Shown here piece by piece: positions 741 to 59,119 of a stretch of 64,000 nt of DNA. The stretch comes from a virus. Lineage: Duplodnaviria; Heunggongvirae; Uroviricota; Caudoviricetes. The translations under genes and the position numbers were made by a program. The DNA lies in IMG/VR virus record IMGVR_UViG_3300042286_000208, positions 70,287 to 134,286 of that record; one strand, written 5' to 3'. Every line of letters begins with the position of its first letter. The stretch's first letter is position 1. The notes beneath the pieces are model-generated. The model was not told where the DNA came from. It searched no databases and worked only from the letters and a program-made list of their open reading frames with translations.

Positions 741-810
741 TATTATATATTATAACGATGTTAAAAGAAGATATTATAATAAATTAAACGAAAGGAAGAA
801 TATTAATATT

Positions 811-4745: not shown

Positions 4746-5279
4746 ATGAAATTAGTAATGGATACACAAGTTCGATTAACAGAATTCAAGACACCCTTAA
4801 AAAAGAAAATCTTTATCGAATCACTAAAGACAAAAAACAATTATATAGAACTAAATGATAAAACACTATTTATATGGGATTATTTAGGGGTATTGGATAA
4901 CGAAAGGGTGTTTGATTCATTCTGTCAAATAGACAACATTACTATATTATTGGACACCGAGACACAAATATTTGAAGCATATAGAGATGGTGTAAAAATT
5001 GACCACGTTATATTTAATGATATCATGAAGTGGATAAAAATAAAACATGATAATGATAAAAGAAGACTACTGAGAAAAATGAAAAAATTCAGAGAGGATT
5101 TTCTTGATCATAAATTAAAATATACGTATTATAGAGGTATATTCAGTGATAGATTTTCAGTATTCATGAAGGGCAAGGAGCTTCTTTTACCTGCTTGAAA
5201 TAAAGATGATGATATAACTCTTCTTGGAATGGAAGAGAATTTCAGTTTCTTTTTAAAATTATGTAAACTTGTTTTATAA
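4746..5279 (+). CDS. hypothetical protein (contains one in-frame TGA at 5196)
   Basis: Listed ORF 4746-5198 continues in frame through TGA to TAA at 5277-5279. Confidence 0.45.
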
Positions 5280-5335: not shown

Positions 5336-5351
5336 TGAATAATTAATTATA
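5336..5351 (+). promoter_or_regulatory. conserved motif TGAATAATTAATTATA (promoter class 1), copy 1
   Basis: Exact 16-mer present 6 times in the window, always intergenic and upstream of a gene; here 22 nt before ATG 5374. Confidence 0.6.
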
Positions 5352-6165: not shown

Positions 6166-6225
6166 TTATATATTATATTAGTGTAAATGCAAACAAATCT
6201 ATATAAATAATAAGGAGAGTAAATT

Positions 6226-10269: not shown

Positions 10270-10890
10270 ATGATAAATAAAGATAAGAATTGTAAAAGTT
10301 GTGCCCACCTAGACGGAGCACATTGTAAAAAATGAGACATTGATATTCCGAACATCCATTCTTTTTCATGCTCCAATTACAGTTTTAAAAAGGAGTTTGA
10401 GAACAAAGGTAAGGTCATATTTGACAGACCAACCCAAGAATTAAGATATGAATACGACTCTTTTAGAGTAGCAGATATGGAGTATCCAAACTATATTACA
10501 ATGGAGTTATATACAGAGGGATCTGATTGGTTTAGATTTAATTACTACTATGTTTTAAAAGATACAGGTCTTAGAGATGGTCATGTCTTTAATGTCATTG
10601 GTAATTTATCTGTGGGAAGAATGATTCGAAATAAAAAAATTGGATCGGGTACATATGTCGATAAACCATATTGGTCTTGGAAATTTGATGATGAGAATAT
10701 AAAAATATCAGACGGATATCTTAAATCAAGAGGTGATGAAGACAATGAGTTCTCTATTAAGATTGAAAAATTGAAAACCATCATAGAGTTGGTTGAAAGA
10801 GTAGAAAAAAGCGGAAATCCGTTGAATGTACCAGACAACGTTAAAGTTCAGTTTATTAGAAGTGAAACATATAACGATCTAGTAAAATAA
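10270..10890 (+). CDS. hypothetical protein (in-frame TGA at 10333)
   Basis: ATG 10270 after RBS ggaga; frame continues through TGA into listed ORF 10477-10890; N-terminal CKSC...HC cysteines. Confidence 0.45.
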
Positions 10891-11610: not shown

Positions 11611-13146
11611 TTGAAATTAGTTTATTACAATAAAGACAAAAGTGAATTTCACAAAAAGAACGGTGAGTTCCAAGGAAACGAAATAACAAAAGAAAAAGTA
11701 TTCGGTAGAGTTGATAATGATTTAGCCTCGCTAGAGTTTACTGATATTAAAAGAAAATCTTTTCAAAAGGGTTCGATATTAGATCCTAACATTTTTGGAA
11801 ACTTCATGATGACCTCCAACTATAGTTGTAAATGCGGTATGACAACTGGATGGGTCAATGAAGGATTAAGCTGCAACCACTGCAACACAACAGTATTACC
11901 AGTGGGTACGAATTTAGAACAATGGGGGTTTATAGATTTAGATCCTTTTCATATTATATCTTATCCCAAATACTTTATATTAGAAAAGATAATTGGAATA
12001 AATGTTCTAAAAAGTATAATTAGAAAAAGTGATTTAATTAACTTAGATGGACAGGCAGTTGAACAAGATGACGATGGAACTTTTAAGAGGTTAAATGACG
12101 CATACCTTCAAACAAAGTTAAAAAATCATAATTATAAAAATCTAGGGTTGAAGAATTTCTATATTTACTATGAAGATATCATTAACTTTTATGCTAGAAA
12201 ATATATATCGAAACAATTTAACGTTGAGCTACCTGATGAATGGTGTTTGTATGATTTCCTATCCGATCCTAAAAATGAAGGAAAAGACATGAATATGTTT
12301 AAATCAGTGGCAACAAAAGAAGACGTATTCATTGATAAAATAATCGTAGCACCAATATCATTAAGACCTATACATAGAACAAAAGATGGTATACAACAGG
12401 ATGAGATGGGAAACCTATATACAAAGATCGTTGCTGAAAAAGTAATTCTTGACGGACACGACCATGTTTTAGATTCTTATATTGAAGAAGCTTTACTGAC
12501 TATCCAATTAAAATATTTTGAATTAGCAAACTATATTGTTAAAGACAAATTGGCTGGAAAAGAAGGTTACATCAGAGATAAGATTAATGGTACTAAACTT
12601 AACTATACAGCTCGTTTAATCTTGTCACCCTCAGATGTATCCAAATATAATGTCGGGGACTGTATACTGCCTTATTTTGTTGCTGTAAACTTTTTAAAAT
12701 ATGAGATCATCAGTATATTATCTTCAATTAAGAACATCAACTACCAAAAAGCATTAGATTATTATACTTTACATCAATATGATTTCAATCAAGAAATATA
12801 TTTGATTATGAAGAAGATTATATCTGATAATGAGGTTGGTGTATTATTAAACCGTGCTCCAACATTGAACTACGGTTCAGTAGTTTATTTAAAATTTGCT
12901 GATATAAAAGACATTTATGAAGATCAAACCTTAGCTGTACATCCATTGACATTCTCATTATATAACGGTGATGTTGATGGAGACGTTGTTACTATCGTTT
13001 TACTTCATGATAAAGAGTTGATCGAAAAAATGAAAAATTCTTTAGGTGTAGAACAAATGTTAACAGATCCCAATAATGGTAAATTGTCTAAAAAACTAAA
13101 TATTAGCAAAGACATTTTATATGGTCTGTGGAAACTTATAGGGTAG
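11611..13146 (+). CDS. multisubunit RNAP beta-prime subunit, N-terminal fragment
   Basis: Zinc-finger CKCG...CNHC; LLNRAPTL matches beta-prime NRAPTLH; YNGDVDGDVV is the catalytic NADFDGD motif; ends at equivalent of beta-prime LGLYY; TTG start with RBS aaaggagg. Confidence 0.8.
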   Translation: MKLVYYNKDKSEFHKKNGEFQGNEITKEKVFGRVDNDLASLEFTDIKRKSFQKGSILDPNIFGNFMMTSNYSCKCGMTTGWVNEGLSCNHCNTTVLPVGTNLEQWGFIDLDPFHIISYPKYFILEKIIGINVLKSIIRKSDLINLDGQAVEQDDDGTFKRLNDAYLQTKLKNHNYKNLGLKNFYIYYEDIINFYARKYISKQFNVELPDEWCLYDFLSDPKNEGKDMNMFKSVATKEDVFIDKIIVAPISLRPIHRTKDGIQQDEMGNLYTKIVAEKVILDGHDHVLDSYIEEALLTIQLKYFELANYIVKDKLAGKEGYIRDKINGTKLNYTARLILSPSDVSKYNVGDCILPYFVAVNFLKYEIISILSSIKNINYQKALDYYTLHQYDFNQEIYLIMKKIISDNEVGVLLNRAPTLNYGSVVYLKFADIKDIYEDQTLAVHPLTFSLYNGDVDGDVVTIVLLHDKELIEKMKNSLGVEQMLTDPNNGKLSKKLNISKDILYGLWKLIG

Positions 13147-14241: not shown

Positions 14242-16299
14242 TTGAAGAAAAGTAAAAACAGAATACTGGGAGAAGAATTATTAGTACCGAGTGGAGCAAC
14301 CAGAGTCGATCCTTATCGACTAATAATGTGGGCTGCTAATACAAGTCAAATAGTTCCACTAAAAGAAACTGATATACCCCGTATATTTACAGGTTTTGAA
14401 AATCAAATTGGTGAGAGATCAAAAGGTATAGCTTATATTACAGCGCCACAATCTGGTAAAGTAATTAAGAGAATAGATAAATATCCTAATTCAGGATACT
14501 ATGATTTAATCATTGAGCTTGATGAAACAGTTAAAAAACCATTCACGAAGGATGGTAAGACAACACCAATGAACAAAAAGGCTTATACAGTTATTTCTGT
14601 AAGGCCAGTGAATAAATTAACAGAAAACTATGGTTATAAAATGAACACAATCAACAGTAAAGATGTCGGTGACGTGATCAAAAAAGACGAATTAATAGTC
14701 TCTTCTGCAGAATATGACGAGCAATTAAACATGAAATTTGGAAGAAACGCCATGGTTGCTTATAGTCCTTTTAATAATGGAACATTTGAGGATGCTATTG
14801 TTGTAAGTAAATCGTTTTCAGAAAAAATGACTTCTTATAAAGTTGAAAAGACGGTAGCTCTAGTTCCAGCAAATGCTATTTTGATTAATCACGAATCAAC
14901 ACAAAGAGCATTATGGAAAATAGGGGAACAAATTGACGATAACTTGATTTTAATATCAAGACCTTTAAACGACAATCTATTAGTGTCACTATCCAATAAT
15001 AATGCCATCAATGAGACCAGATATTCAGATAGAAAAACTTATACAAATGGTGGGAAAGTCGTAGATATAGAAATTTTCGCAAAAAGAGACCAAATCGAAG
15101 GATTCAAATCCAAAGGCGGATTCTATAAAGAAATATTGGATATTTACGAAATGAATAAAAAATACTACTTATCTATTATAAACACAATTGAAGAGTTAGA
15201 CCTATACCCAAGAGAATTGGATGAAAAAGGTAACCCAAATGGTAGATTTATCGATAAGGATAAACTTAAATTCTATACACATGTTGAATTGGATTTCTTA
15301 TATAAAGAAGCAAAGGAGTGGCTAAATGAAGATAGCGTATGGTTGACTGCGAAGAGTGAACCAATTAATACTATAGCATTAAGATATACTATTCTTAAAG
15401 AGGCTTCTTTGGAAACCGGTGGTAAACTTGTTGGTAGATATGGTGACAAGGGTGTTACGTCGATGATTATAAAAGAAGATGAAGAAATGCCTTACTTCTA
15501 TAATCATTTAGGTGAGAAAAGAAATATAGACGTATTCTTAAACGTGTTTGGTATATTCAACCGTGAAAATCCAAGTCAGTTATTTGAGCAACACCTGAGC
15601 TTCATATTAAATAACCTAGCTGATAAATGTAGAACTATGCAAGACATTACAGAAAGACAAAGTTATTTCTTCAGTGTTCTACAAACTTTAGATCGCGATT
15701 ATGGCAAATTTATGTTCGAAGAATACAAAACTCTATCTCAAAAAGATAGAGAGTTATTTTGGAAAGATGTATATGACTATAAATTTCCATTTGTCATGGA
15801 TCCGTTTGAATCAAGTATTAAATGGGATGATATTGTAGAAGTTCAGAAAGAATTCCCTGAGCTTTCAGAATTATATAAGATGGAAGACGGAAGAGAGATC
15901 GTTGCTGGAGATCGCTATATTGTTAGATTAAAACATGACTCTCAAAATAAATCTAGTGTTAGATCTACTGGTAAAAATGATATCGCTGGAAACTTGCCTA
16001 CCGATGGTAAGAAAGAAAGAAAAATTAAACAAGCATTGTTATCAGACAAATCAGCTAAATTCGGTGTAATGGAAAAACTAAACTTAGAGATATTGAATGA
16101 TCCTGATATTATCAGAAAATTCTATGCTATAAATAGCTTATCTCCAGAATCCAGAGTAGAGTTAGTGAAGGAAATCCTTGAAAGAGGGGAAGTATTTAGC
16201 ACCACTCTTGAAATTGATGAATTCCTAAAAGATAGTTCTAATAATAGAAAAGTATTAGATGCTTATTTAGATGTATTAAATCTAAAAATAGAAGATTAA
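14242..16299 (+). CDS. multisubunit RNAP beta subunit, C-terminal fragment
   Basis: RVDPYRLIMWAANTSQIVPL ~ beta NDANRALMGSNMQRQAVP; NNGTFEDAIVVS ~ NGYNFEDAI; GGKLVGRYGDKGVTS ~ GDKxAGRHGNKGV; NIDVFLNVFGIFNRENPSQLFEQHL ~ [22 protein letters not shown]. Confidence 0.8.
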   Translation: MKKSKNRILGEELLVPSGATRVDPYRLIMWAANTSQIVPLKETDIPRIFTGFENQIGERSKGIAYITAPQSGKVIKRIDKYPNSGYYDLIIELDETVKKPFTKDGKTTPMNKKAYTVISVRPVNKLTENYGYKMNTINSKDVGDVIKKDELIVSSAEYDEQLNMKFGRNAMVAYSPFNNGTFEDAIVVSKSFSEKMTSYKVEKTVALVPANAILINHESTQRALWKIGEQIDDNLILISRPLNDNLLVSLSNNNAINETRYSDRKTYTNGGKVVDIEIFAKRDQIEGFKSKGGFYKEILDIYEMNKKYYLSIINTIEELDLYPRELDEKGNPNGRFIDKDKLKFYTHVELDFLYKEAKEWLNEDSVWLTAKSEPINTIALRYTILKEASLETGGKLVGRYGDKGVTSMIIKEDEEMPYFYNHLGEKRNIDVFLNVFGIFNRENPSQLFEQHLSFILNNLADKCRTMQDITERQSYFFSVLQTLDRDYGKFMFEEYKTLSQKDRELFWKDVYDYKFPFVMDPFESSIKWDDIVEVQKEFPELSELYKMEDGREIVAGDRYIVRLKHDSQNKSSVRSTGKNDIAGNLPTDGKKERKIKQALLSDKSAKFGVMEKLNLEILNDPDIIRKFYAINSLSPESRVELVKEILERGEVFSTTLEIDEFLKDSSNNRKVLDAYLDVLNLKIED

Positions 16300-16738: not shown

Positions 16739-16754
16739 ATGAATAATTAATTAT
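16739..16754 (+). promoter_or_regulatory. motif TGAATAATTAATTATA, copy 2
   Basis: Exact 16-mer; followed by hairpin gcttccacc/ggtggaagc, then gene 16822. Confidence 0.55.
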
Positions 16755-16821
16755 ATCAGATAGCTTCCACCTTAATGATGGTGGAAGCATTTCTGGTTTA
16801 TTTAAAAAGGAGACAAACATA

Positions 16822-17175
16822 GTGTTTAAATTTAAAAGATTAAATATAAATCGTATAAAAGAAGATTTAGAAAAGATAGAGATATTGAACAATAAAGAAG
16901 ATAAAACGGAAGAGGATTTACTTGAGGGTCATAGAATATTTAGAGTTTTTTCTAATTTTATTAAATTAAATTATGGAAAGTTTAAAAGATTTAAAAAAGA
17001 AGATAGAAACATGTATGTTAATATTTATGACTGAACAGAAAGACAGAAAAGCGTAGTATCTTCAATAAGAAAAATTGGTTTTAGAGAAGTGATCGATGGC
17101 GATGAAGAAGAATCCGATTGGATCATTTACGAAGCCTGGCTTCTTGGTTATTTAATTGTAAAATATAAAAAATAA
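16822..17175 (+). CDS. hypothetical basic protein (in-frame TGA at 17032)
   Basis: Listed ORF 16822-17034 continues through TGA to TAA 17173-17175. Confidence 0.4.
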
Positions 17176-17187: not shown

Positions 17188-17682
17188 GTGAGAATAAATT
17201 GTATTCCTGTAGAATATTTAACAGATCAACATTTAAGAGCGGAATGGGTGGAAATGCTCATGCTCCCAGCTTTCATGAAGAGAACACTAAAAGCAAAAGG
17301 TTATATTGATATTGACGAAAGTATCGTCTATAAATTAAACACGGGACACGCCAAATTTTTTTACAATAAATTAAAGTATGTCGAGAATAGATATAAACAA
17401 ATTCAAACAGAGATGAGAAGCAGGGGTTTTGAAGCCAATCCATCTTTAGATCTTAGTATGTTTCCTAAAGAGCTATTTAATAGCTGGAAACCTAGTAAGG
17501 AAGATATGAAAGTCAATGCGAACAGGATTTTGACCAGAATTAGTGAAAAACCGCTGTGGTATACTTTTTTTCAACTAGAAGAAAAGAATACAGGTTATCA
17601 ATTTGAAAAATGAGTGGAATTTTACGAAGAGTGGTTAGATTTTAAATACGAATTAAAAGAATCAGATTTAAAAAGAATTTAG
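17188..17682 (+). CDS. denV: pyrimidine-dimer DNA glycosylase (T4 endonuclease V, DenV-like); in-frame TGA at 17611
   Basis: RINCIPVEYLTDQHLRAEWVEMLMLP matches T4 endoV [27 protein letters not shown]; C-terminal EKPLWYTFF ~ QRPTWYKYY. Confidence 0.75.
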
Positions 17683-18191: not shown

Positions 18192-18632
18192 ATGAAATTT
18201 TTACTATTGAGAACAGATCAAGTAAATCTAAACGGTAGAGTTTATCCAAAAGATTTAGTTACTGAAGTAATAAATGATGAAAATTTTCAAAAAAGATTAA
18301 GAAACAGAGAGTTATTGGGATACATTGGTCAGTCATCAAATGAGATGGAGAGAGACATCAGTAAAGCTTCTCACGTTTTAACCAATGTATATTTCGAAGG
18401 AAATGATTTAATTGGTGACGTAGACATTTTAGAAACACCCGAGGGAATGGCTTTACTAAGCTCTTTACGGGATGGAAGTATAGATTTTGGAATGGCATTA
18501 AGAGGATATGGGGATGTTGAGTGAAATGATAACAAAGAACAAGTAATAACAACTCTAAGTATATCTTCTTTTGATTATGTGTATAGACCATCCCATCTAG
18601 ATAAAAAAAATAAAAATTTAGAAAGAGAATAG
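18192..18632 (+). CDS. possible prohead protease (HK97/S78-like); in-frame TGA at 18522
   Basis: Weak resemblance to prohead protease core (ASHVL..., GMALLSSLRDGSIDFGMAL ~ LVKRGDLNGVSFGF). Confidence 0.3.
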
Positions 18633-18642: not shown

Positions 18643-19746
18643 ATGAAAAAATTATTCACATTGATGCTAGTTTTACTACTAGCTATTGCATTAACTGGTT
18701 GTGTTCTTGATGAAACTGACCCAGACAACACAGATCCTATAATCAACACACCAATATATACCGTAGCTTTTGACTCAGACGGTGGTAGCGTTGTAGAACC
18801 GTTAACCGTGGAGGAAGGAGATATGATAAGCAGGCCACAAATTCCAATGAAAAAAGGATATATGTTTGTTTATTGATATTCAACAAATCCAGAAACAGAA
18901 TATGATTTTACAACAATAATAACAAACAGCATTACCCTTACAGCTTTATGAGAAGAGATTGATTATTCTTATGATATCAACGATATTCCAGAAGAAATAC
19001 AATACTATTTAGGCGAATCTAGCTTCAATCATATAAGCGATTGGATTATAAGCGATGATAATTTAGATGGAGAAATATCTGAAGAAGAAATACTGTCTGG
19101 TTATGAACTAGTGGATGAGATGTTTGGTGGATATGATCATAATGTAGTTTTAAATTCGGAAGATTTATCTGATATGCAATGGTGTATTGACGGAAGCATG
19201 GATCAAGAATATATTGATGCTGCGATTTATGCCATTTCTTATTTTAATGGTATTGAATGGGTTAACGCATCTTATATTATTGAAGATGATTTTGAAAACA
19301 ATTGCTCTTCTTATAAATTTACATTTACTTGAATAACAGTAGAAGACTTATATGATGAGTTGTATGATTCATATATTTATGAAGGTTATGATGAGGATTT
19401 AGCTCATCAAATGGCTATGGACTTTTCAATGGGAGCTATTGCATTTAATAGTTTGGGATTAGATTATGAAAACGAAGACTATTATCATTACGGAAGTACT
19501 GGTATATATTTTATATTTGAGGCGATGGAAGAGTTAACTCAAACAGAAAAGAACTTTGTTGCTCTACATGAAATGGGGCATAGTTTTGGTCTAGATGATA
19601 TTTATGACATTGAATTTGCTGGATATACTTTAATGTTTGGATCAGCAGAAGGACAAGATGAATTACTTCCTATTTTGAGACCATTTGATTTATGGAATTT
19701 AAACTATATTTATAATAATACCGAAGAGGAAGAAGTAGTAGAATAG
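18643..19746 (+). CDS. lipoprotein with Listeria-Bacteroides (Flg_new) repeat and HExxH zinc-metallopeptidase motif; 4 in-frame TGA
   Basis: Signal peptide plus lipobox LTGC; PIYTVAFDSDGG...GYMFVY(W)YSTNPETEYDFTT...ITLTAL(W) fits the Flg_new repeat with TGA at both invariant Trp positions; HEMGHSFGLDD; listed ORFs 18643, 19111 and 19360 share one frame with no TAA/TAG between. Confidence 0.65.
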
Positions 19747-21280: not shown

Positions 21281-22669
21281 ATGTTTTCAAAATCAGAATA
21301 CGGAAAATACCTCGAAGGTTTAACAGACGGTCAAAATGTTGCATTTCATATGATAACAGAGTGACTTTTTAACTTTTATTCTCTAGATATAGAAAAAAGA
21401 AGAGATAAACAAGTCTTTGTGTTATCAGGATATGCTGGAACAGGTAAATCTTACCTCATGGGCATAATAGACAAGTTTTTAAGAGAATATTACAGAAACG
21501 ACATGGCTGTTCAAGCATGTGCATATACAGGTAAGGCAAGCACAGTCTTGGCTGAAAAGAATATGAATTCTACGACACTACACCATTTATTATACATACC
21601 AATGGTAAAAGAGACTAACGGTATCAAAAAGGTTATTTGGAAAAGACGTGGTAATTTAGATGATAGAGTTAAACTAATCGTAGTTGATGAATCTTCTATG
21701 ATGCCTTCAAAACTATTCGAAGATTTAAAACTATTGAAACTTCCTATATTAGTTGTTGGTGATGGATTTCAACTACCATCAATAGATGTTGGAACCAATC
21801 TTCTAGATAATCCCGATTATACCTTAACAGAGATCACTAGACAAGCATTAGATAATTCAATTATTAGATTATCAATGTTAGTTAGAGATGGTGGAGAAAT
21901 ACCATATGGTGATTATGGCGATAACGTTCAAGTAATCTCAAAAAGAGGACTTTATGCCGGAGATTATATAGAAATAATGAATAACTATGATCAACTCCTA
22001 GTTGGAACAAACAGGAGTAGGCTATATTACAATACTCTATATAGACAACATTTACTAGGTGAACATTACGATAATAACCCACTTCCGTGTGTAGGAGAAA
22101 AAGTAATTATAACCCAAAATAATTGAGATTTTGAAATTGATGAGGCAGGGGAATACAATCTATTTAATGGACTTGTAGGTATAGTCGAGGATGCCGAGTC
22201 GACAAATATGGAAGAAATTGATAGAATAAAAATAAAAATTAATTTCGGCAAAAAAGAGTATATAACTGATTGATTTATATATGATACCGGTATTTTCAGA
22301 GAGGCACTAGATAATTCTATAAGGAGACCTTATTTTGAAAATGATGTATTGGCTTTAGTAGATGAAAATGGTAAATATTTAATTAAAAAAGAGATCAGTG
22401 AATATAAAAAAATGAGTCGTGAAGAAAAAATGGAATATATTGATATAATGTATAATTCCACTTTTGATTTCATGAATCAAGGGATAAAAATTAATCAATT
22501 AGATTTCGGATATGCAATATCTGTACATAAGTTTCAAGGAAGTGAGGCAGACAATGTTTGTGTTATAGATGAAAGTTATGTGTTTGATAGGGACGAGACC
22601 GAGAACAAAAATAGATGGCTATATACGGCCATAACAAGAGCAAAAAAATTCTTGTTACTAATTAAATAG
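21281..22669 (+). CDS. dda: Dda/RecD-like SF1 DNA helicase; 3 in-frame TGA (21362, 22124, 22271)
   Basis: N-terminal LTDGQNVAFHMITEWL ~ T4 Dda LTEGQKNAFNIVMKAI; Walker A GYAGTGKS; DEAD-like VVDESSM; C-terminal VHKFQGSEADNVCVIDES and TAITRAKK motifs; three listed ORFs stitched in one frame. Confidence 0.8.
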
Positions 22670-22682: not shown

Positions 22683-23141
22683 ATGAAAATTATAAACGGA
22701 GATTTATTAAACGTAAAAGAAGGAATAATTTGTCATCAAGTGAATACATATGGAATAATGGGAGCCGGATTGGCACTCAGTTTAAAAAATAAATTTCCAA
22801 ATGTGTATAAACAATATAACGAACATTGTCGTATAAACAAATGTGATGAACGAACTTTACATGGAAGTGTATTATATGTATATGCCACTAATAAACTTAT
22901 AGTTGCAAATGTATTTAGTCAATTATCCTTTGAAACAGACTTATCAAGAAGAACTGATCTGTCTCTAATATGAATGGCTTTTGAAGACATTTTTAAAATA
23001 GCAGATCAAGAGAATCTAAATATATACATACCTTATAAATATGGTTGTGGCCTAGCGGGTGGTGACTGAAATAAAGTGAGTCAAGTATTTTTAGATTTGG
23101 AGAAAAAATTTGGAAAAGAAATTATAGCATTAAAGATATAG
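22683..23141 (+). CDS. macro-domain protein (ADP-ribose binding/processing); in-frame TGA at 22971 and 23067
   Basis: MKIINGDLLNVKEGIICHQVNTYGIMGAGLALSL matches macro-domain N-terminal motifs; GCGLAGGD(W) phosphate-binding loop. Confidence 0.65.
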
Positions 23142-23150: not shown

Positions 23151-23453
23151 GTGTTAAATCAAGTAATTTTAGTCGGTAGAATATCCGATATAATCAAAAA
23201 AAATGGTTGTATTATTTCTATGAGAGTAAATGTGACCAGAAGAAATGATGATAAAACAATAGATAGACCGAAGGTTGCCTTACCAGAGGCAATGGGTAGA
23301 AGTTTATTTGAAAAAATAAAAGATAAAGATGGCGTGATGATTGGTGTTAAGGGAAGAGTAGAAACAGAATTAAAAGGTAGATATGGAACCATATCTAATA
23401 TAGTTGCAGAAAAAATCACATTACTAGAAGATGACACCCAATCAAATGAATAA
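23151..23453 (+). CDS. OB-fold SSB-like protein
   Basis: MLNQVILVGRISDI...GVKGRVETE pattern of short SSB-like OB fold. Confidence 0.45.
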   Translation: MLNQVILVGRISDIIKKNGCIISMRVNVTRRNDDKTIDRPKVALPEAMGRSLFEKIKDKDGVMIGVKGRVETELKGRYGTISNIVAEKITLLEDDTQSNE

Positions 23454-23462
23454 TTAATTATA
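23447..23462 (+). promoter_or_regulatory. motif TGAATAATTAATTATA, copy 3
   Basis: Exact 16-mer overlapping stop of 23151-23453; 24 nt before ATG 23487. Confidence 0.55.
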
Positions 23463-23486
23463 AAATATACCGAGGAGGTGTTGATT

Positions 23487-25100
23487 ATGCAAGTAGAAGC
23501 TAATAAAGAATTTGTGTTCCTAAACCAACATGTTGGAACTTTCTATACTGGTATAAGTTCCATATTAGGACAGGTGAAGGAATATATACTAAATCAATTT
23601 CCTCAGGAGTTTTTTAAGAGAGTTACAGTAGAAACTGCAGCACCATCTTCACTTACAAATCAGAATATGCAAGATGGTTTAGTAAAAATGTATTATCCTT
23701 TTTTAAATATTGGGGTAAACATTCCTCATGAATATGAAGAAAAAACAACAAGACCTTTATTAGAACGTTCTGAATTATTTATACAGCCTCTTATAAGACA
23801 AAATTACCCAAGAGTCTTGATTGACCCAGATGATAATTTTACTGTAGGTTTTACATATGAATGAGTAAAATCTTCTTATGATTTCAGAATAACGACAAAT
23901 ACCTTTATGAACTCCATAGATGTGATGAACTGAATAAGAACTAAACTTCCACTAAATTTCATAGGATATTTAAATGATTCTCCTTTGGAGTTTGAATTAC
24001 CTCAGAGTATTGTTAAAACAATAGCAGAGCTTCAGGGATATGATTTAATGACAAAGGAAGGTGTTAAAAATCTTGATAGATATTTAATGTCTGTAGGTAG
24101 GATGTTTTCCTTAATTAAAAGAAAAACAAGTGCTACATCAGGTCAAGAGTCCTATTTCATGTCTATAAATTCAGACATTCAAGTATATATAGACAATCTA
24201 GATGCTCCGACTTCAGTTGTTAGAAGTGGTCACACCGAGGGCGAGTATGTTGTAAGTTTTACTGTTACAACAGGAGCATATTTTCCTGTTAGCTATTTAA
24301 TGAAAATAAGAAAAGATTATTTAGTTGCTAGAGTAGAACAAAAAGACTTTCTGGATATCTATGATACACCTAATCAACCACTTGTTGATGGACTGATTTC
24401 AATAGGTGTGGATATTCCTTTAGCGAACAAGAAAGATATTATAAACTACACTACATCGGATGGGAAAAAAGCAATAGGCCACTTGGTTGATGAATGAAGA
24501 TTCGTATACGGGTCCGAACAAACAGAACCACCTATTGTTTCAATCTTCAGCTTAATCGATGATCCAGAATTAAAAAGAGTTCATGCTTATGCAGTAGAAC
24601 ATAGTATTAATCTAGAAAATCTTTTTCATTTTGAAGGATATAAGGTGGCATACACCCAAGATGATATCAATTTTGTCATGAACTATGAAGATTTTGAAAT
24701 CAATATAGAAAACGCTGAATTTAGTGAGGTTTTGATAAGGTTCTATGTAAATAGAGCAACCTATGATGCACTTCAGTTTGCTATGGAGACAGATACTTAT
24801 TACTTTAATAAGAACGTACTGTGTTTCACAGATGTTATTTTATGGGACAGTAAGACAAACATGAATGTCACTAAGAAAGTACAAGTTAATTTCTTTAAAG
24901 ACTCGATTGAAATGTACGATGAAAACCCATTGAAAGCTCTTAAGATCGTAACAAAATATGGTTATGGATATCTCAATATCAAGCCATATGTTGAAGATCC
25001 AGACAGAGAAGATGATGTGATGTTAGTGGTTCTTGGTTATGAGAGCAAGTTGATAGATGGGAAACCTGTTCCAATACTTTATGAAATAATTTTCTCATAA
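23487..25100 (+). CDS. hypothetical 537-aa protein; 3 in-frame TGA (23862, 23931, 24495); possibly virion structural
   Basis: Listed ORFs 23478, 23985 and 24645 share one frame; intervening sequence re-translated with no TAA/TAG. Confidence 0.45.
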
Positions 25101-26487: not shown

Positions 26488-26760
26488 ATGAAAAAAGATG
26501 TTTGGAATATAGTGATGTTTTTTCTTATAGATTTAATTATTTTCGTTGTTGTATGGATGGCAGTATTCGAGGTACTTGAATATGCAAAAGATGCAATAGT
26601 GGATCAAAGGGATAAAGTAATTATGGTAGTTTCTGCTATGATTACATTTCTAGTTGTGTTTATTGGTCTTGAATCAATATCTAGATATATTAGTAGTAAA
26701 TTTAGAGTAAAAGAAAAAGTTTCAACGATTAGAAACAAGAGGGGTAACAAAAATGATTAA
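26488..26760 (+). CDS. small membrane protein
   Basis: Two hydrophobic helices, basic C-terminal tail; RBS aaaggagaaatgaaATG. Confidence 0.4.
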   Translation: MKKDVWNIVMFFLIDLIIFVVVWMAVFEVLEYAKDAIVDQRDKVIMVVSAMITFLVVFIGLESISRYISSKFRVKEKVSTIRNKRGNKND

Positions 26761-26991
26761 AAATTGAAAAGCTTTTTCCTTAGAATTATTAGCTTTTGTT
26801 TTAGTAATTCTATCTGCAAACGTAACTTATAATGTAGTAAGATTTGCATTTCCTGTTATGACAGAAGAAATTGGGAAAGCAACAACTATTTTAGTAATTA
26901 TATTACTATGTGTCTTTGAAGCAGTGGGTGCAGCATTTATCTATAGTTATATAACGACTAAAAATAAAACCCCTCAAACTAAAGAGGACTA
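26752..26991 (+). CDS. small membrane protein (in-frame TGA at 26764)
   Basis: 79-aa hydrophobic ORF overlapping the previous stop; not in the standard-code track. Confidence 0.3.
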
Positions 26992-26993
26992 AT

Positions 26994-29546: not shown

Positions 29547-29610
29547 TGCTTTAAAAAAATTATATATTATAAAACAGTAGTAATAGTCAATTATAATCTG
29601 ATGTATTACT

Positions 29611-29645: not shown

Positions 29646-29722
29646 GGACCCTTAGCTCAGTTGGTCAGAGCTCCCGGCTCATAACCGGGTGGTCGAAGGT
29701 TCGAGCCCTTCAGGGTCCACCA
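29646..29722 (+). tRNA. tRNA with anticodon CAT (Met, fMet or Ile2), CCA encoded
   Basis: Acceptor stem ggaccct/agggtcc, D-arm agctcagttggtcagagc, anticodon stem cccgg/ccggg with loop ctCATaa, T-arm gaagg-ttcgagc-ccttc, discriminator a, CCA. Confidence 0.85.
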
Positions 29723-30175: not shown

Positions 30176-31099
30176 CTAGTCTTTTTTTATTTCTTTTTTT
30201 AGAATGTTTTCTATGTTTTTAAATTCTGTATATGGTATTCTGATAAGTTTTATATTATTATCTTTACAATATTTTGTTTTTATAGAGTCTTTTATTTTTT
30301 GTTTTTTTAGTTTATTAATTGCTTTTTTTTCATCATTAAACACCCATGGTTTATAATGTTGCATTCCATCATATTCTATACATGTGTTACTTTTAGGTAA
30401 ATAAAAATCAAATCTTAAAAGCTCTTTATTCTTACATTCATCAAATGTATATTCTTCTATATAAGATATATGTTTACTTTCTAAATATGATTTTACTTTT
30501 AACTCACCTTTAGAATTCCTACAAGAGGGACATCCCCCACCACGTAAATGATTGTCTGGAGTTGTATTTCAGGGACCGTGTTTACTACATATTATTTTAA
30601 CTTTTGTCCGAGCGTTTATATAATCAACTTTTGAATAGTCATATTTATTTCCATGAATTTTAATAGCTTTTTCTACAAATTCATCAGTAGATGGTTTTTT
30701 AACATTAGAACATTCAGGACAACCATGTCCTCCTAAGTGTGAATTTGGAGATTGAAGAAAATCACCATGCTCATTACATGTAATTATTACTTTTTCTACT
30801 GCTTTTTTGTATATTGTTTTAGAGTAATCATATTTATTATTATGTATAATATTAGATTTTTCTATAAAATCATTTGTGTTTAATGTTCTTTTTTTAGATC
30901 TAGATTTTAAACTACATTTAGGACAGCCATGACCCTTTAAATGAACTGATGCTCTTTGATAAAACTCTCCATGTTCTGGGCAAATAATCAATATTTCTTT
31001 ATGATATGTTGTTATTTCAGATTTAGAATAGTCATACTTATCATTGTGTATTTCTTTAAATTTGTTGATATAAAAAGAGGTATCATGTTTTTTTGGCAT
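30176..31099 (-). CDS. homing-endonuclease-like protein: three tandem Cys-His zinc-ribbon repeats plus C-terminal Vsr/DUF559-like PD-(D/E)XK nuclease; in-frame TGA at 30569
   Basis: Repeat NKYDYSK-x-Y...IIC.EHG.F...HL.GHGCP.CS occurs three times; C-terminal LRFDFYLPKSNTCIEYDGMQHY fits DUF559/Vsr core; RBS aaaggagg; listed ORFs 30569-31099 and 30176-30364 join across TGA. Confidence 0.55.
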
Positions 31100-31269
31100 A
31101 TAATACCTCCTTTCATCTAGCTGTTATCTTTGTTATCTCTTATTTCTCCTATTTTTCGACCTAATTCAATTAGTAATTTGTTTGTGAACATTAAATAAAA
31201 TATATCCCGATATTATTGAACAGGTTCTCACACCCGTCTGATTTATACTAAAGATAAACCATTTCTTAT

Positions 31270-31499
31270 ACTTTCATATAAGCGTAGACTATATCATCAT
31301 CTCTTTCGAGAGCAGCTTACTTCGGGAAATGAGATTTCTTTCCCTACTCCCTTACGGGATAGTCGTTGGGGCTGGAACTTAGAAAGATCCCTGCCTGCTG
31401 ATTGCCCAATCTCTCAACTTTTCAAACCATGGCTTCGACTCACGTCTCGCAGTGGTATGAGAGCTCTAAGGGGTTTCCAGCATATCAAGCTGTTTTAAC
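31270..31499 (-). ncRNA. group I intron-like catalytic core (P4/P7 elements) on the minus strand
   Basis: Minus-strand CAACGACUAU (plus 31359-31368) matches R element GUUCAACGACUA; GAUAUAGUC (plus 31287-31295) matches S element AAGAUAUAGUCC; the GACUA/UAGUC halves pair as P7; CAAUCAGCAGG (plus 31390-31404) resembles Q element AAUCCGCAGC. Confidence 0.5.
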
Positions 31500-34400
31500 C
31501 TATAATCTCACAATTATAGGGCACTGTTTTAATCGTCAATGCGTCATTCTGGAAAACACACCGGTAGGTGTTAACACAGATTCAATTTCTTCATTAGGTC
31601 TATATTCAGAGTATGGGGCTTCTTTATCATCTAAAACATTAGATATTACACCCTTTAAAGCAGTATCATAACTTAATTTATCACCGATACCAAGAGGAAC
31701 GTTTGATTGAATATAATATTTAATCATTACGCCTTCATAACCTTCGCCATCTTCTTTTGCAGTTAAGCTCTGTTTCTCAGGTCGTTTTTGTTTTAGAAGG
31801 TATGAATTATTTTCCCCAACAAATTTCAATTTCTTTTCATATTTTCCACCGAAATCATTTATTAATTTTACAAGTGAAGGGTTTAAGTCTTCCTTATCAA
31901 CATTATAGAACACTTCTATTTCTTTAATTACCCCGTGGTAGTTAGGATATTTTGTAGATGATGGAAGAATATCTTCAACATCACCATATTTATCTGTGAA
32001 GCTATTTGTTAAGAATCCTTCAATACTGTTATCACCGAAATCGTCATATTCTATAACAGGAGTCGTTTCGTCAACATGATCGCCTATTTTGCTCATACTC
32101 TTAATCTTAGTTGTAGGTGTTAATCTTACCATTTCTGCAATTACAACTCTACTCATGCTCTTCTTACTTAGATTTTTGGTTATTATGGTACTATCTTCGA
32201 AAGAGTTATCTATAGGCGCAATTGCCATTTTAGCTAAGGTACCAACAAGCAACTCAACTTTTCCGTCATCAAATGCCTTAAAGAATACATCATTATAGGC
32301 GATGATATCGTCTTTTTTAAACATGTCTTTTTCTCTTAGTCTCATAATCAGCTTATTAGGTGTGTAGAACGCATTGGCGGAGTTTCTTATAAATGTAGTT
32401 GATAGATCGATGAAATCTTTGGTTCCATCTAAATACTCTAATTCAACTATGTTTGTATCCCTGTTAAAGGTTTTTACAACACCATCTTTTTTTGCTTTAA
32501 ATATGAAATCACTACTTAGAAGGCCTGGAACCACTTGTTCAGCTCCTGTGCTCCATAGTCTAACAGAACCTTTATTAAGAGGCATGTTATGTTTAAATTG
32601 TCCAATTGTCATGGATTGTCTTGATGCATCAGCATGTCTTGATAAGAATGGAGAAAGTAATTCGGAAGCAGATAACATTCTAGTATCTGGTGTATTTTCA
32701 ATGTCTTCTATCTCAGAAATATAACCTCTGATACCTTTAATATGTGGTTGATATGTAAGAGATCTGGTAATACCTGATGATCCACCAAAAGCAGTAGCAC
32801 CAGCAGAATATACAGAAAGTTTATTATTATTAAACTCACGCGTAGCTTGTGAGAATGATGCAGCTTTTTCAAGACCCATGAACCCTTTTTGAGAGGTTCT
32901 GGAATATGTCTCAAGTTCCAACACAGGACTTAATGCAGAATAAGTATTTACAGAAGATATCTTAAGAAGATTGAATATAACAGCATTTTCATTTACATCA
33001 AATGTGTTTCTAGTATTCCCTCTAAGATATCCATTCAGATAATCAATATAGGATTTTATTAGTATTTGATTTAGCATACCTGCTATTTGTTCATAGTTTC
33101 GTAATCTGTAGTTTAATACATTACCAAGCTGTCTATAGCTATTATCTGCTAAAAGAGTATTACAATATAATAGTAAATCTAGAATATTACTTGGTATTTT
33201 TTGTTCGTGTAGTATTTCTTGAGTTATCGGATCGACTAAAACGTTTAGTGTTATCTTCATTGTGTTCTTAAAGTGGGTTTTAGTAGATGTAGATATTTTT
33301 TTAATTAAACCTATTCATTCATCATAAGGTTCTGATGTATTGAAGGAACTTAGGTTAAAGTCATGAGGCTTAGCAAAATATAAACCATTCATAAGAACTT
33401 GATTTTCTATAGTTTCTTTGTAATATAGGTATACGTCTTTGAACTTAATTTCAACATATCCTGGTCTAGGATCTCTATCTTTTGATATTGTGTATGCTAT
33501 TTTATATCTATTCATTGTATTTTTCAAACCATATATCATACCAAGAATAAGAATTAGCGGATAATGAGACCCAGCTATTTTAACTTTACTATATCCCATC
33601 TTATTACCAGTATCAGGAAGATCCTCGAATCTTGTATCATAGATATCCCTATACAAGAATTCAGATAAAGTTTCACTGATAAGTGTGTCCGTCTTATAGT
33701 CTGTCGAGTATACTTTATGTTTGTAAATGAATAAAAGTCTATTGGATCCATCAATAAGTTTGTATCCTATTGGTATAAGATCTTCAGGATATTTCCAATA
33801 TTTTGTAGGAACATCGTTTAATTTTAATTCAGTTGAAATATCATCATAGTTAAAGTTTAATGAGTATCCATTTTTTTCTATAGAGTATATGTTTTTACAA
33901 ACTTCACTATATTCTATATTCTTGATGTTGTTTTCTGAATATGATATTAGATTATCCCCATATTTAACCTTTACTTTTGGATCATTCTTTTTGTTATCTA
34001 TTAGTTTTAATACTTGACTTATAGTTTTAGACAAATAACCCTTTTCTCTATCAATAAATAGAATAGAGTAGTTTGTTGTTATTTTGACTGAATCTGGTGC
34101 AGTTTTGGTCACTGGCAAGAAAGCTAATTGATTGTCTACTGTTCATCTGTTACCATTCAAATAAAGGAAATGATTGTCGATTATTTTTGGAATATTAACG
34201 CTGAATCTTATATCTTTATTAGTACCATTGATATTTACTGTGTAAGCCAAATTTAATTTATAGAGTTGATTGTTTGCATTTGAGGTATCCTCAAAATCAA
34301 TCTTCTTCATAGTTAAAGGTAGAATAGAGTTGTTAGATAAACTAGATGTTATATTAATTATATCATCTTTAAATTGTTTATCTATATATTCTTTTGAAAG

Positions 34401-35651
34401 TATTGCGATTGGGGTGTGTGATAATTCTTTTAGTCTTATATCATTAGCAGCTCTTTGATCTATTTGTTCTTCTATAGATGAGTATTTTTCTACATCTACT
34501 TCTGGTAATTTTTTGAATTCATTATATAGAATTTCCATTTCTTCAGCTACATTTTCTTCTGCCTTTAATATGTTTTGTGACTCTTTTTTCTTAAGACCAG
34601 CATATCTTGTAAGATTGGCCTTTATGGTTGGATCCTCTATCAGTTTATCAACTTCAATTTGACCACTGTCTTCTCTTCTCTTTATGTTCTCTACGATGGA
34701 TAAATATATATTGTCTTGTGGATCAGTATTCGGTTCCACTTCAACGTTTTTAATTTTATTCACTTCATAGAATTTTTTAACTACCTCTTCGAATTTAGTT
34801 TCTACAACAATATCTTTAGAATCAAGGGTTTTATCATTGATTGCATCTTCTTCGCTATACACTTCATCTTGTGAAAGAGGCTCTTGTCCTTTACCGCCAA
34901 GCTTGTATAACTTAAAAAGTCTTTGCATATGTTTGCTTTTTAGTTCATTTATGTCAATGTTATCTAGATCAAATTTAATCATAGAGTGAACTTTAGTGTT
35001 ATAAAAAACAACATATTTTATACCTCTGAAGAAGGCTTCTCTTGTTCCTTCGTCATAATTTCAAAAAGCTTTTGTTATTATTGTCGCAGGATCTACTAAG
35101 AATTCTGTATCACCAACAAAACTTCTTTTTCTTACAAGAATGTGGAAATTGTCTACAGACCCATCATAAGGAACAACCAATATATTGTTTAAATACCCTG
35201 CGTTTTCTATAGATTCTTTTAGCATAGTGAAAAGATATTGAGAGATATACTGTGTTGATCTTGGATTTTCTCCTCTTAATTTCTCTACTAATTCTATAGT
35301 CTGTCTTCACTCATTATTAAAATCATATATAAGGTTTTTATTGCTATATGCCAATATATTTTTACGACCTAAATTTATTTTCTTATTTGTTTTTGAGAAT
35401 ATGTCGTTATAATATTCTTTTAGAGGAATAACAACACGTCTTCTTTTCATAGGAGTAATTCTGAATGGTGTATAAATAGATTTGATATTAGCTCCTCTTA
35501 AAAGTTTAGAATTGATAACATCAATCATAGTTTGCTCTTTTAAGCTAGGTATTAAAATCAAATTGTCCTTATTTTTGTTTTGTGTTTCGAAAAATATAGT
35601 CGGATTCTTATAAACAAGACCATTTCTCGCTTTTGAAAGTTTTAAAATCAT
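31500..35651 (-). CDS. multisubunit RNAP beta subunit (second copy, N-terminal plus middle regions, about 1383 aa); 5 in-frame TGA
   Basis: Listed ORFs 35307, 34143, 33315 and 31536 are one frame joined by TGA at 35307, 35061, 34143, 33315 and 31536; motifs IPKIIDNHFLYLNGNR(W)TVDNQ ~ NGTERVIVSQL; DASRQSMTIGQFKHNMPL ~ NDANRALMGSNMQRQAVPL; APIDNSFEDSTII ~ NGYNFEDAI; IGDKLSYDTALKGVISNVL...VLTPTGVFSRMTH ~ GDKMAGRHGNKGVISKI...VLNPLGVPSRM; ends 12 codons later at TAG 31500 with no C-terminal 250 aa. Confidence 0.7.
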
Positions 35652-35672: not shown

Positions 35673-35688
35673 TATAATTAATTATTCA
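35673..35688 (-). promoter_or_regulatory. motif TGAATAATTAATTATA, copy 4 (minus strand), upstream of RNAP beta gene
   Basis: Reverse complement of plus-strand tataattaattattca; 22 nt before ATG 35651. Confidence 0.55.
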
Positions 35689-35719: not shown

Positions 35720-35731
35720 TATATATTATAA
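35720..35731 (+). promoter_or_regulatory. class-2 motif TATATATTATAA upstream of 35783
   Basis: One of about 10 intergenic copies of TTATATATTAT(A/T)A, each 45-90 nt before a start codon. Confidence 0.4.
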
Positions 35732-35782
35732 TACTGTAATGAATGATAAGCAATCAAAAAATATGAAGAGGAGAATTAAAAA

Positions 35783-36312: not shown

Positions 36313-36328
36313 TGAATAATTAATTATA
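36313..36328 (+). promoter_or_regulatory. motif TGAATAATTAATTATA, copy 5
   Basis: Exact 16-mer 31 nt before ATG 36360. Confidence 0.55.
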
Positions 36329-40243: not shown

Positions 40244-40402
40244 ATATATTTATATATTATTAAGTCGAACGGAATAGAATTTTTTTCGTATTAAAAGACT
40301 GAGGCATATTAATGTCTTCGTCTTTTTATGCACAAAAACTAGGAGGATGTGAATAATGAGATTAGATTTAGATAAAAAGATAAAAGAATTGGAGATGATA
40401 TA

Positions 40403-44477: not shown

Positions 44478-44493
44478 TGAATAATTAATTATA
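44478..44493 (+). promoter_or_regulatory. motif TGAATAATTAATTATA, copy 6
   Basis: Exact 16-mer 48 nt before ATG 44542. Confidence 0.55.
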
Positions 44494-44541: not shown

Positions 44542-45414
44542 ATGAAATTAATAAAAGTACAAGACGGAGTTGGCATTAAGGAAATACACTGAGATTTAGA
44601 TGGTGATACACCAATCAATAATTTTGAGTTAGTTCCTATTGGAGACTCCCACATAGGTTCGCCTGTTTGCAATATAGAAGAAATCAAAAGAACAGTTAAA
44701 TATGTTCAAGAGGGTGAAGGGCGCTATGCAATCCTGCACGGAGATTTCATTGATAACGGGATTCCTAGCAGTAAAACAGATGTAATCGGTCAAACAATGA
44801 CCATGCAAGAACAGCTGAATCTCGCTGTAGAGTTATTTATGCCTATCAAGGATAAAATCTTATGTATTCTTGATGGTAATCACGAACAAAGAACTAGACG
44901 TGTAGCTGGGGTAGATATTACTTCATTCATGGCACTTAGATTAGGTGTAGAAGAAGTTTATTCAACAGGTACAGGAGCTGTTTTACTTGATCTTAAATTT
45001 GGTAAAGGAAGTAGATCTGGAGTAAAAACGGCATCTCATCACTTTACTGTAGTAGTGGCTCATGGAGCAAGAAGCGGTGTTTCCACTGGTTCAGCAGCAA
45101 CAGGGCTAGAGGGTTTACAAAAAATTATCGTCAATGCCGACCTATATGTAATAGGGCATACGCATAAAATTCTAAACTTTATCAAAGAAGTTTATTTTGT
45201 AAATTCATATGGTTATTTAGAAACAAAAGTTCAGTATTATGTAAATACAACAGCGTTTTTAAGATATGGTGATTACGGTAAGGATAAACTATATCCACCG
45301 ACTACAATTAAACCTCAGGCTATTCAAGTCAGAGCATCAGAAATTAAGAAACTTCGTATCGGTAATACTAGCAGAACAAAACAGCAATTTATTTGCGATA
45401 TCAAAAATATTTAA
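44542..45414 (+). CDS. calcineurin-like metallophosphoesterase (in-frame TGA at 44593)
   Basis: Motifs VPIGDSH, GDFIDNG, GNHE, GHTH; ORF from ATG 44542 joins listed 44797-45414 in frame. Confidence 0.6.
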
Positions 45415-46225: not shown

Positions 46226-46687
46226 ATGAAATTGGAGACTTTAGAGAGATTCTTAGGTAAAGATCAAGACCTATGAAGTCGTGAAGATTTAGAAAAACTT
46301 ACCGAGAAATATGGTAAAGCTGCCATTTTCTATGATACTGACGGTATAAATAACAGACTTGTTTTGTTATTTAAGTATAGACATATGTCTGAAAATGACA
46401 GAATTATTGTAGATTTTATGTCTGGTAAGAATAGGGAATATGAGTATATTATAGAATATGTAAGTAATTATGTTGATTCAATAGAGTTCGTTTTCTGGCC
46501 GTCAGAGATAGCTCTGCATACAATATACAAGATACTCTGTGAGAGTATTATAAATGATCAAGAATTAAAAGAAGATTCAAATATATATCTTAAGTTGAAA
46601 GAACTGGCTAAAAAGATTTCTTTACTTAGATATGACTGGGTAATAAAGATGCAAAAAAATAAGGAGGTTTCAGATGAAAATAAATAG
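46226..46687 (+). CDS. hypothetical protein (in-frame TGA at 46274)
   Basis: ATG 46226 with RBS aaaggaga joins listed ORF 46364-46687 in frame. Confidence 0.4.
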
Positions 46688-54304: not shown

Positions 54305-54367
54305 AACTTATATATTATAGTGATGTATAAGTTCAAAATCATTATAATAGAAAAAGGAGAATAAAAC

Positions 54368-59106: not shown

Positions 59107-59119
59107 TTATATATTATAA
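59107..59119 (+). promoter_or_regulatory. class-2 motif TTATATATTATAA upstream of JAB gene
   Basis: Copy of recurrent 13-mer, 51 nt before start 59170. Confidence 0.4.

Follow-up and report, generated by a model that had tools for sequence, protein, structure and literature searches.

In the 64,000-nucleotide (nt) stretch of DNA analyzed here (the window), which covers positions 70,287 to 134,286 of IMG/VR record IMGVR_UViG_3300042286_000208, a virus of the Caudoviricetes, TGA almost certainly encodes tryptophan (Trp), as judged from codon-level comparison with related sequences. TAA and TAG are the only stops, and the whole window is correctly annotated with translation table 4. Thirty-two in-frame TGA codons, spread over 17 of the 69 curated genes, were found beside 140 TGG codons (Table 1).

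Three relatives (L007, L008, and L009), whose proteins are 54-89% identical to those of the window, were compared with it codon by codon. A window TGA faced a TGG in the orthologue 10 times, a window TGG faced a TGA four times, and TGA was matched by TGA 10 times; the remaining codons in those TGA columns specified Tyr, Phe, or Leu. The exchange of TGA and TGG at shared columns indicates that the two codons are synonymous, which settles the amino acid. In the helicase, for example, L007 has TGG in place of TGA at codons 282 and 331 and TGA in place of TGG at codon 120; likewise, L008 has TGG at TGA codons 525 and 607 of the 984-amino acid (aa) protein. The large beta subunit gene of the virion RNA polymerase (RNAP) has TGA at codons 115, 197, 503, and 779, with TGA/TGG swaps in all three relatives.

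In-frame TGA, taken by itself, would also be compatible with glycine (table 25), with selenocysteine, with sequencing errors, or with pseudogene lesions. Glycine codons (GGN), however, were absent from the TGA columns in the alignments with L007, L008, and L009 and in those of the lipoprotein orthologues described below, and the 14 TGA/TGG swap pairs, together with the swaps in the lipoprotein, are not what these readings would give; the codon-level alignments rule out table 25, selenocysteine, and sequencing error. Errors and pseudogenes are further opposed by the presence of the same TGAs, at 100% identity, in L001 and L002, which were assembled independently from different samples, and by the retention of TGAs in relatives. 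The probability left to this group of explanations is negligible.

The lipoprotein gene at 18643-19746 places TGA within a Pfam domain. In its product, a signal peptide carrying a lipobox Cys is combined with a Flg_new domain (aa 39-101; Pfam E=8.6e-11) and, at the C-terminal end, a zincin-like region containing HEMGH. A first-pass annotation, made from the sequence alone, had placed TGA on the two invariant Trp positions of the Flg_new domain, and alignment confirmed this for codons 78 and 103. Trp occupies the codon 78 column in P0027 and P0028, two unrelated Flg_new proteins from bacteria, as well as in the InlB B-repeat of known structure (2y5p). Swaps in the reverse direction were also present, the TGG codons 134 and 206 of the window being TGA in orthologues.

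Gene structure gave the same answer. With TGA as a sense codon, coding density, measured as non-overlapping coverage by open reading frames (ORFs), rose from 85.7% under code 11 to 93.7%, and the median ORF length rose from 157 to 206 aa. Treating TAG as sense gave a coding density of 85.8%, i.e., no gain. In Bacillus phage AR9, which uses the standard code, treating TGA as sense changed coding density from 88.6% to 90.5%, a difference of 1.9 points. All 69 curated genes stop at TAA (52) or TAG (16) when the intron-split beta gene is counted by the stop of its second exon. By comparison, eight of 62 annotated AR9 genes (13%) stop at TGA, and at that rate the probability of finding none among 69 genes is 7e-5.

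Two TGAs near C-termini (5196-5198 and 17611-17613) may still be true stops, which weighs against TGA being sense throughout. Allowing both as stops, the probability of two or fewer against the 13% of AR9 is 0.004. For the second of them, in the pyrimidine-dimer glycosylase gene, the gap to the next gene is 11 nt with readthrough and 80 nt if TGA stops. The TGA of the metallophosphatase gene, on the other hand, must be read through because the catalytic motifs GDSH and GDFIDNG lie after it and before the next ATG. In six genes the lone TGA falls at codon 27 or earlier, and all six have starts supported by a Shine-Dalgarno sequence. The notion of an N-terminal TGA "gate" was dropped, as the clustering was not significant (Kolmogorov-Smirnov p=0.055; Mann-Whitney p=0.10).

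The first-pass annotation had read TGA as a sense codon for Trp rather than Gly, had kept TAA and TAG as stops, and had held that the standard-code ORF track splits many genes. All three statements were borne out: TGG or Trp, beside some Tyr, Phe, Leu, or Ile but never Gly, was found at the TGA positions of the aligned helicase, RNAP beta, and lipoprotein; no curated gene required TGA as its stop; and table 4 gene calling rejoined 17 genes. Its count of more than 35 in-frame TGAs was too high. The recount is lower because one TGA is intronic, one lies 5' of the true start of the 984-aa protein, and some belong to spurious ORFs. Public gene calls for these sequences conflict in the same respect. 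Those in Logan/ENA (L001, L007-L009, L099, and L100) read TGA as sense and give full-length proteins, while the JGI/IMG calls (L002 and L011) use table 11 and contain truncated or split genes (e.g., 657 vs. 667 aa and 205 vs. 290 aa).

The virion RNAP beta gene requires one further correction. The first-pass annotation had it at 31500-35651, which misplaced the 3' end: a group I intron starts with the last TGA read through in that model. Orthologues run uninterrupted from SRMTH into DIFYLMFTNKLLIELGR, whereas the window diverges after SRMTH, starting with TGA, and the missing peptide is encoded 332 nt downstream, at 31206-31129. The second exon restores the C-terminus found in L007 and L008, whose genes have no intron, and in cultured phages. 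The spliced product would have 1399 aa, and its alignment with the cultured-phage homologues extends to residue 1393. On these alignments the predicted gene is join(35651..31539, 31206..31120) on the minus strand. The intron was found only with an Rfam scan limited to 600 nt; scans of the whole window missed it at both thresholds, so further introns may remain undetected. Adjoining the intron is the gene for a 307-aa DUF723-type protein (30176-31099, minus strand) with three repeats and an internal 189-nt DNA repeat at 30629-30873. Its product is probably a free-standing homing endonuclease. DUF723-type paralogues flank other genes in L007 and L100.

Judged by its gene content, the window is a piece of a large phage with two multisubunit RNAPs, distantly related to AR9/PBS1, S6, and phiR1-37. 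Pfam and PHROG searches detected split multisubunit RNAP genes, SbcC, SbcD, a DnaB helicase, a family B DNA polymerase encoded as two genes, a T4 gp21-like prohead protease, and a denV-like glycosylase. Two RNAP sets are present, a virion set (35651-31120, matching AR9 gp188) and a non-virion set (matching gp088 and gp269). When the window was searched by tblastn against GenBank phages, the matches were solely to jumbo phages, namely Staphylococcus phage S6, Bacillus phages AR9/PBS1, and Yersinia phage phiR1-37, at 21-32% protein identity. The hosts of the nearest cultured relatives by tblastn are Staphylococcus, Bacillus, Listeria, and Yersinia. Megablast of 24 kb of the window against GenBank phages gave no match, nor did an exact-peptide search with the DNA polymerase in IMG/VR and GTDB genomes. 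The sequence is identical in independent assemblies (L001, L002, and L010-L015). The same proteins occur on a 134,286-bp JGI contig, so the window is less than half of the known contig. Jumbo-type phages are defined by genomes larger than 200 kb, and the longest known contig here is 134,286 bp. The GC content is 30%, and nearly all genes are on the plus strand. The two parts of the family B DNA polymerase, an exonuclease gene (40403-42424) and a polymerase gene (42424-44427), overlap by one base (TAATG), and AR9 likewise has two separate DNA polymerase genes.

The use of TGA within the window was highly uneven. TGA makes up 19% of the Trp codons, although two-fold A/G codon pairs (Lys, Glu, Gln, Leu, and Arg) end in A in 75-92% of cases, with pooled values of 79-80% in each block of the window. 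The TGA share of Trp rose from 5% in the first block (1-16.4 kb) to 42% in the second (16.4-39.4 kb) and fell to 7% in the third (39.4-64 kb; Fisher p=3e-8; permutation of gene labels, p<5e-5). The first-pass statement that the whole window uses table 4 stands insofar as that table fits the annotation of every gene; as a description of codon use it does not, since 52 of the 69 genes are free of TGA and the codon is strongly partitioned. A glycosyltransferase gene (20168-21226, plus strand) lies within the TGA-bearing block and has only TGG. In its L007 orthologue two TGAs are present, and one of these faces a TGG of the window, a contrast that points to rapid TGA/TGG turnover between close relatives.

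Two promoter-like motifs accompany this partition. Motif A, TATATATTAT, occurs 12 times (1.6 expected) and is followed by (6N)-G in eight cases (0.3 expected), these eight copies being intergenic and co-oriented with genes. The other four copies start at 10131, 25104, and 51135 on the plus strand and at 2228 on the minus strand. The early promoter of AR9, which was mapped experimentally and is used by the injected virion RNAP, is AAATATATATTAT-(6N)-G (PMC5312081). By sequence, motif A matches the core of that promoter, which would have been kept despite protein identities of 21-32%. Motif B, the 16-mer TGAATAATTAATTATA, has six exact copies, all intergenic, each oriented toward a downstream gene and lying 15-66 nt from its start codon. 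Exact copies occur in L007, L008, L009, L010, L099, and L100, and in relatives the motif precedes the orthologous genes for virion RNAP beta, the 984-aa protein, and the 540-aa protein. Motif B may be a promoter of the late or middle class, or else an operator.

When each gene was assigned to its nearest upstream motif, a rule that disregards terminators and rests on motif classes set after inspection of the data, motif A units contained four TGA and 99 TGG codons (4%) and motif B units contained 28 TGA and 39 TGG codons (42%; odds ratio 18, Fisher p=7e-10). The nearly TGA-free motif A units encode, among others, SbcC, RNase H, the non-virion RNAP subunits, and the DNA polymerase N-terminal half. 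The TGA-rich motif B units include virion RNAP beta, the prohead protease, the lipoprotein, the helicase, and large proteins without a known function. The two RNAPs fall on opposite sides: none of the 10 Trp codons of the non-virion subunits is TGA, compared with four of six in virion RNAP beta. The non-virion subunits must be made first, and in phiKZ it is the non-virion enzyme that transcribes the counterparts of virion RNAP beta (PMC5312081). The expectation that units recognizable as early by their motif are almost code-neutral while motif B units are recoded largely holds, on motif assignments, in the window.

Several points weigh against so simple a rule, beginning with the choice of classes after the fact. 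Some genes in motif B units are TGA-free, such as the glycosyltransferase with its 10 TGG codons, and four genes in motif A units have one TGA each. The 12-bp palindrome ATAATTAATTAT within motif B means that the motif could be an operator and not a promoter. Out of sample, on the 9 kb immediately 5' of the window (L010), the rule held only in part. In line with it, a gene with three TGAs follows motif B at L010:2100, and TGA-free genes follow motif A at 7463 and 9934; off the rule are a TGA-rich cluster (L010:5073-6952) that follows a terminator with neither motif 5' of it and one copy of motif A that lies inside a gene. Small TGA-rich genes occur at L010:2136-2576 and L010:6048-6952, 2.2-7.1 kb 5' of the window, with TGA/TGG counts of 3/1, 4/3, and 3/0; the gene pair at L010:6048-6952 has neither motif directly 5'.

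The recoding probably does not mean that the host has a different code. The overall picture that we consider likely is a host with the standard code, argued from the contrasts in codon usage, and a TGA-to-Trp switch made by the phage. TGA-poor early genes would be translated by the unmodified host apparatus before the code changes, and an early phage product would then let ribosomes read TGA as Trp. The most likely decoder would be a tRNA-Trp(UCA) whose gene lies elsewhere in the genome, perhaps aided by interference with release factor 2 (RF2), and TGA-bearing genes would give full-length protein only after the switch. Such a mechanism has already been put forward for known TGA-recoded phages. 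A low share of recoded genes has been read as a sign of a standard-code host (bioRxiv 10.1101/2021.08.26.457843).

The first-pass annotation had concluded the opposite, that the host itself probably uses table 4. A host of this kind, e.g., a mollicute-like bacterium without RF2 whose code the phage shares with no decoder of its own, would account for the lack of tRNA(UCA) in the ~74 kb of phage sequence searched, for a window in which TGA is nowhere needed as a stop, even in the predicted early genes, and for the GC content of 30%. Phages of real code-4 hosts, however, look different. Mycoplasma phage P1 has 39 TGA and two TGG codons (95% of Trp) and MAV1 has 50 and 15 (77%), with TGA in all genes, including those for polymerase and replication, in step with AT bias. 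In the window, TGA is 19% of Trp overall and ~4-7% in early and replication units, though the A/G pairs are 79% A-ending. Ribosome-binding sites of the AGGAGG type are strong, and the cultured relatives matched by tblastn infect Staphylococcus, Bacillus, Listeria, and Yersinia, which also speaks against a code-4 host. Staphylococcus and Bacillus are standard-code Firmicutes. A code-4 host is accordingly improbable, and the claim was not upheld.

The lack of a decoder gene is a weak ground for a code-4 host, because a TGA suppressor tRNA is detectable in only 35% of TGA-recoded phage genomes (bioRxiv 10.1101/2021.08.26.457843), leaving 65% without one, and because less than half of the contig was covered. 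The first-pass report that the window holds no suppressor tRNA(UCA) was confirmed with ARAGORN under relaxed, intron-tolerant, and mitochondrial-type settings and with the Rfam tRNA model; the sole tRNA gene of the window is that for tRNA-Met(CAT). The search was extended to 9 kb upstream, 1 kb downstream, and the relatives' contigs; neither there nor in the window, which with its flanks makes up ~74 kb of the contig (at least 134 kb), was any tRNA(UCA), release factor 1 (RF1), or tryptophanyl-tRNA synthetase (TrpRS) found. This counts against a phage-made switch, in which the decoder is assumed and was not seen in the ~74 kb. A metagenome scan with a chimeric query of two flanking proteins returned only topoisomerase loci of other large phages, 34-43% identical and without a tRNA(UCA). 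A copy of motif A lies directly 5' of the tRNA-Met gene (29561), so phage tRNA genes may be transcribed early. Directly after that gene is a structured non-coding stretch of ~450 nt (29723-30175), of which nt 203-365 are 73% conserved beside tRNA-Met in L007. A suppressor tRNA hidden there was rejected, as the stretch gave no tRNA-like hit at relaxed thresholds and no Rfam match.

Recoding might also proceed without any suppressor tRNA, if RF2 were disabled or out-competed and the host tRNA-Trp(CCA) read UGA near-cognately, perhaps with the help of phage translation factors. The failure of even relaxed searches to find tRNA(UCA) fits this, as do the lack of a detectable suppressor tRNA in most known code-4 phages and the translation-related genes of the phage (IF3-like, IF1/eIF-1A-like, bS21, and Pth2-like). 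Bacillus subtilis reportedly reads UGA as Trp at low efficiency. Efficient decoding would nevertheless be needed for genes with four to six TGAs, among them those for the 984-aa protein and virion RNAP beta, and no candidate RF2 inhibitor was identified in the part of the genome covered, which is less than half; decoding of this kind is unlikely. In the window, translation-related genes lie at 1421-1654, 25205-25732, and 45449-45679, with eIF-1A/IF1-like, IF3-like, and bS21 proteins among their products, and a gene for a Pth2-like peptidyl-tRNA hydrolase lies just 5' of the window (L010:5073-5387). A more elaborate version of the phage-made switch, which is speculative and rather doubtful, is that the change from TGA to Trp forms a second, translational lock on top of the two-RNAP program. 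Units headed by motif B (TGAATAATTAATTATA) would then be both late and untranslatable before the switch, which may operate without tRNA(UCA), for instance if host RF2 were inactivated and UGA were read by the tRNA-Trp of the host.

Recoding of TGA to Trp in phages, including large ones, is already established. The code-4 phages of the Agate and Jade clades (bioRxiv 10.1101/2021.08.26.457843) resemble the present phage in that in-frame TGA aligns with Trp, TGA stops are rare or absent, recoding lies mostly outside replication and early genes in several modules along a large genome, and a suppressor tRNA is often undetectable. Their predicted hosts use the standard code, as the host here probably does. 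The likeness is one of features and not of clade placement, the window containing no terminase gene. The present phage differs in having two multisubunit RNAPs, which the text of that study does not mention, in tying recoded and unrecoded units to two promoter-like motifs, and in having no RF1, TrpRS, or tRNA(UCA) within the ~74 kb examined.

With AR9/PBS1 (Takahashivirus) and the related jumbo phages S6 and phiR1-37, the window shares a large gene for virion RNAP beta, non-virion RNAP subunits that are split, interruption of the virion RNAP gene by one or more group I introns with homing-endonuclease genes nearby, a split family B DNA polymerase, the early promoter core TATATATTAT-(6N)-G, and a GC content of ~27-30%. 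These phages differ in protein sequence (21-32% identity), and AR9 differs also in having TGA annotated as a stop (13% of stops) and in its late promoter, AACA-(6N)-TA/G, which is unlike the 16-mer of motif B. In Mycoplasma phages P1 and MAV1, TGA likewise encodes Trp, and termination is left to TAA and TAG, but TGA use there (77-95%) is uniform over genes, unlike the uneven 19% of the window. The TAG-to-Gln phages (crAss-like and Lak) have reassignment mainly in late genes, for which a role as translational timer has been proposed; they differ in codon and amino acid, and TAG is a normal stop in the window.

Table 11 fragments 17 genes in this phage, including those for virion RNAP, the prohead protease, and the largest proteins of unknown function; the correct annotation is table 4 plus one intron join. 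The idea that stop recoding acts as a timer has so far rested mainly on functional gene categories. Here early units can be called from an AR9-like promoter core, so the timing prediction can be counted directly. Recoding in a phage with both virion and non-virion multisubunit RNAPs goes beyond a routine example, and the lineage would be well suited to tests of the timing model and to the search for the decoder.

Table 1. Coordinates of recoded genes, RNAP genes, the intron, the tRNA gene, and promoter-like motifs in the window
Feature	Position	Strand	Remarks
177-aa gene	4746..5279	+	TGA codon 151, sense or stop both possible
206-aa Cys-rich protein	10270..10890	+	Single TGA codon 22; strong Shine-Dalgarno at first ATG
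117-aa gene	16822..17175	+	TGA codon 71; first gene after motif B at 16740
Pyrimidine-dimer glycosylase (denV-like)	17188..17682	+	Pfam Pyr_excise; TGA codon 142/164, sense or stop both possible
T4 gp21-like prohead protease	18192..18632	+	TGA codon 111, within Pfam S77 match
Lipoprotein	18643..19746	+	367 codons with TGA read through; 3 TGA, 4 TGG
TGA codon 78 of lipoprotein	18874..18876	+	On conserved Trp of GY.F.GW in Flg_new
TGA codon 103 of lipoprotein	18949..18951	+	Terminal conserved Trp of Flg_new; Trp in P0027/P0028; TGG in orthologue L100
TGA codon 230 of lipoprotein	19330..19332	+	TGG in orthologue L101; Leu or Ile in two other orthologues
PIF1/RecD-like helicase	21281..22669	+	Pfam; TGA codons 28, 282, 331
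Macro-domain-like protein	22683..23141	+	TGA codons 97, 129; 0 TGG
540-aa protein (phrog_21946)	23478..25100	+	TGA codons 129, 152, 340; directly after motif B at 23447
79-aa membrane protein	26753..26992	+	TGA codon 5
Treble-clef/DUF723-type repeat protein, likely homing endonuclease	30176..31099	-	Pfam DUF4379; DUF723 in L007 orthologues; TGA codon 177
Virion RNAP beta, exon 2 (predicted)	31120..31206	-	Encodes DIFYLMFTNKLLIELGRKIGEIRDNKDNS followed by the stop; tblastn
Group I intron, 332 nt, no ORF	31207..31538	-	Rfam RF00028, 60.4 bits vs. gathering score 50, E=7e-15
Virion RNAP beta, exon 1 (predicted)	31539..35651	-	phrog_14872 E=1e-130; AR9 gp188 (annotated virion RNAP subunit)
984-aa protein	36360..39314	+	6 TGA, 1 TGG; directly after motif B at 36313
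Family B DNA polymerase, C-terminal half	42424..44427	+	Single TGA codon 10; Shine-Dalgarno serves first ATG
Metallophosphatase	44542..45414	+	Pfam Metallophos; TGA codon 17
153-aa gene	46226..46687	+	TGA codon 17
169-aa gene	48349..48858	+	TGA codon 27
Non-virion RNAP beta' N-terminal subunit	11611..13146	+	Best AR9 match gp269 (annotated non-virion); 0 TGA, 4 TGG; early-class comparator
Non-virion RNAP beta C-terminal subunit	14242..16299	+	Best AR9 match gp088 (annotated non-virion); 0 TGA, 6 TGG; early-class comparator
tRNA-Met(CAT)	29646..29722	+	ARAGORN
Motif A-(6N)-G	744..760	+	AR9-type early promoter core
Motif A-(6N)-G	6167..6183	+	Motif scan
Motif A-(6N)-G	29561..29577	+	5' of tRNA-Met
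Motif A-(6N)-G	35720..35736	+	Motif scan
Motif A-(6N)-G	40251..40267	+	5' of split DNA polymerase genes
Motif A-(6N)-G	54309..54325	+	Motif scan
Motif A-(6N)-G	59108..59124	+	Motif scan
Motif A-(6N)-G	61168..61184	+	Motif scan
Motif B	5336..5351	+	Exact
Motif B	16740..16755	+	Exact; heads TGA-bearing block 16822-23453
Motif B	23447..23462	+	Exact; 5' of 540-aa gene
Motif B	35673..35688	-	Exact; 5' of virion RNAP beta; same position in L007, L008, L009
Motif B	36313..36328	+	Exact; 5' of 984-aa gene; same position in L008
Motif B	44478..44493	+	Exact; 5' of metallophosphatase gene

Other elements were detected toward the 3' part of the window. A non-coding, GC-richer stretch of 283 nt lies between genes at 53362-53644, with a predicted stable fold of -71 kcal/mol for the single sequence. 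A retron-type reverse transcriptase is encoded at 62346-63533 on the plus strand (PADLOC RT_II-A E=2.5e-42; Pfam RVT_1). A diversity-generating retroelement and a group II intron were rejected for this region, in which no template or variable repeats and no Rfam hit were found. The 870 nt 5' of the reverse transcriptase gene (61475-62345) are non-coding and GC-richer and could encode a retron non-coding RNA. One Logan assembly breaks at ~61.2 kb, and A-rich imperfect direct repeats are present at 61213-61242 and 63863-63892.

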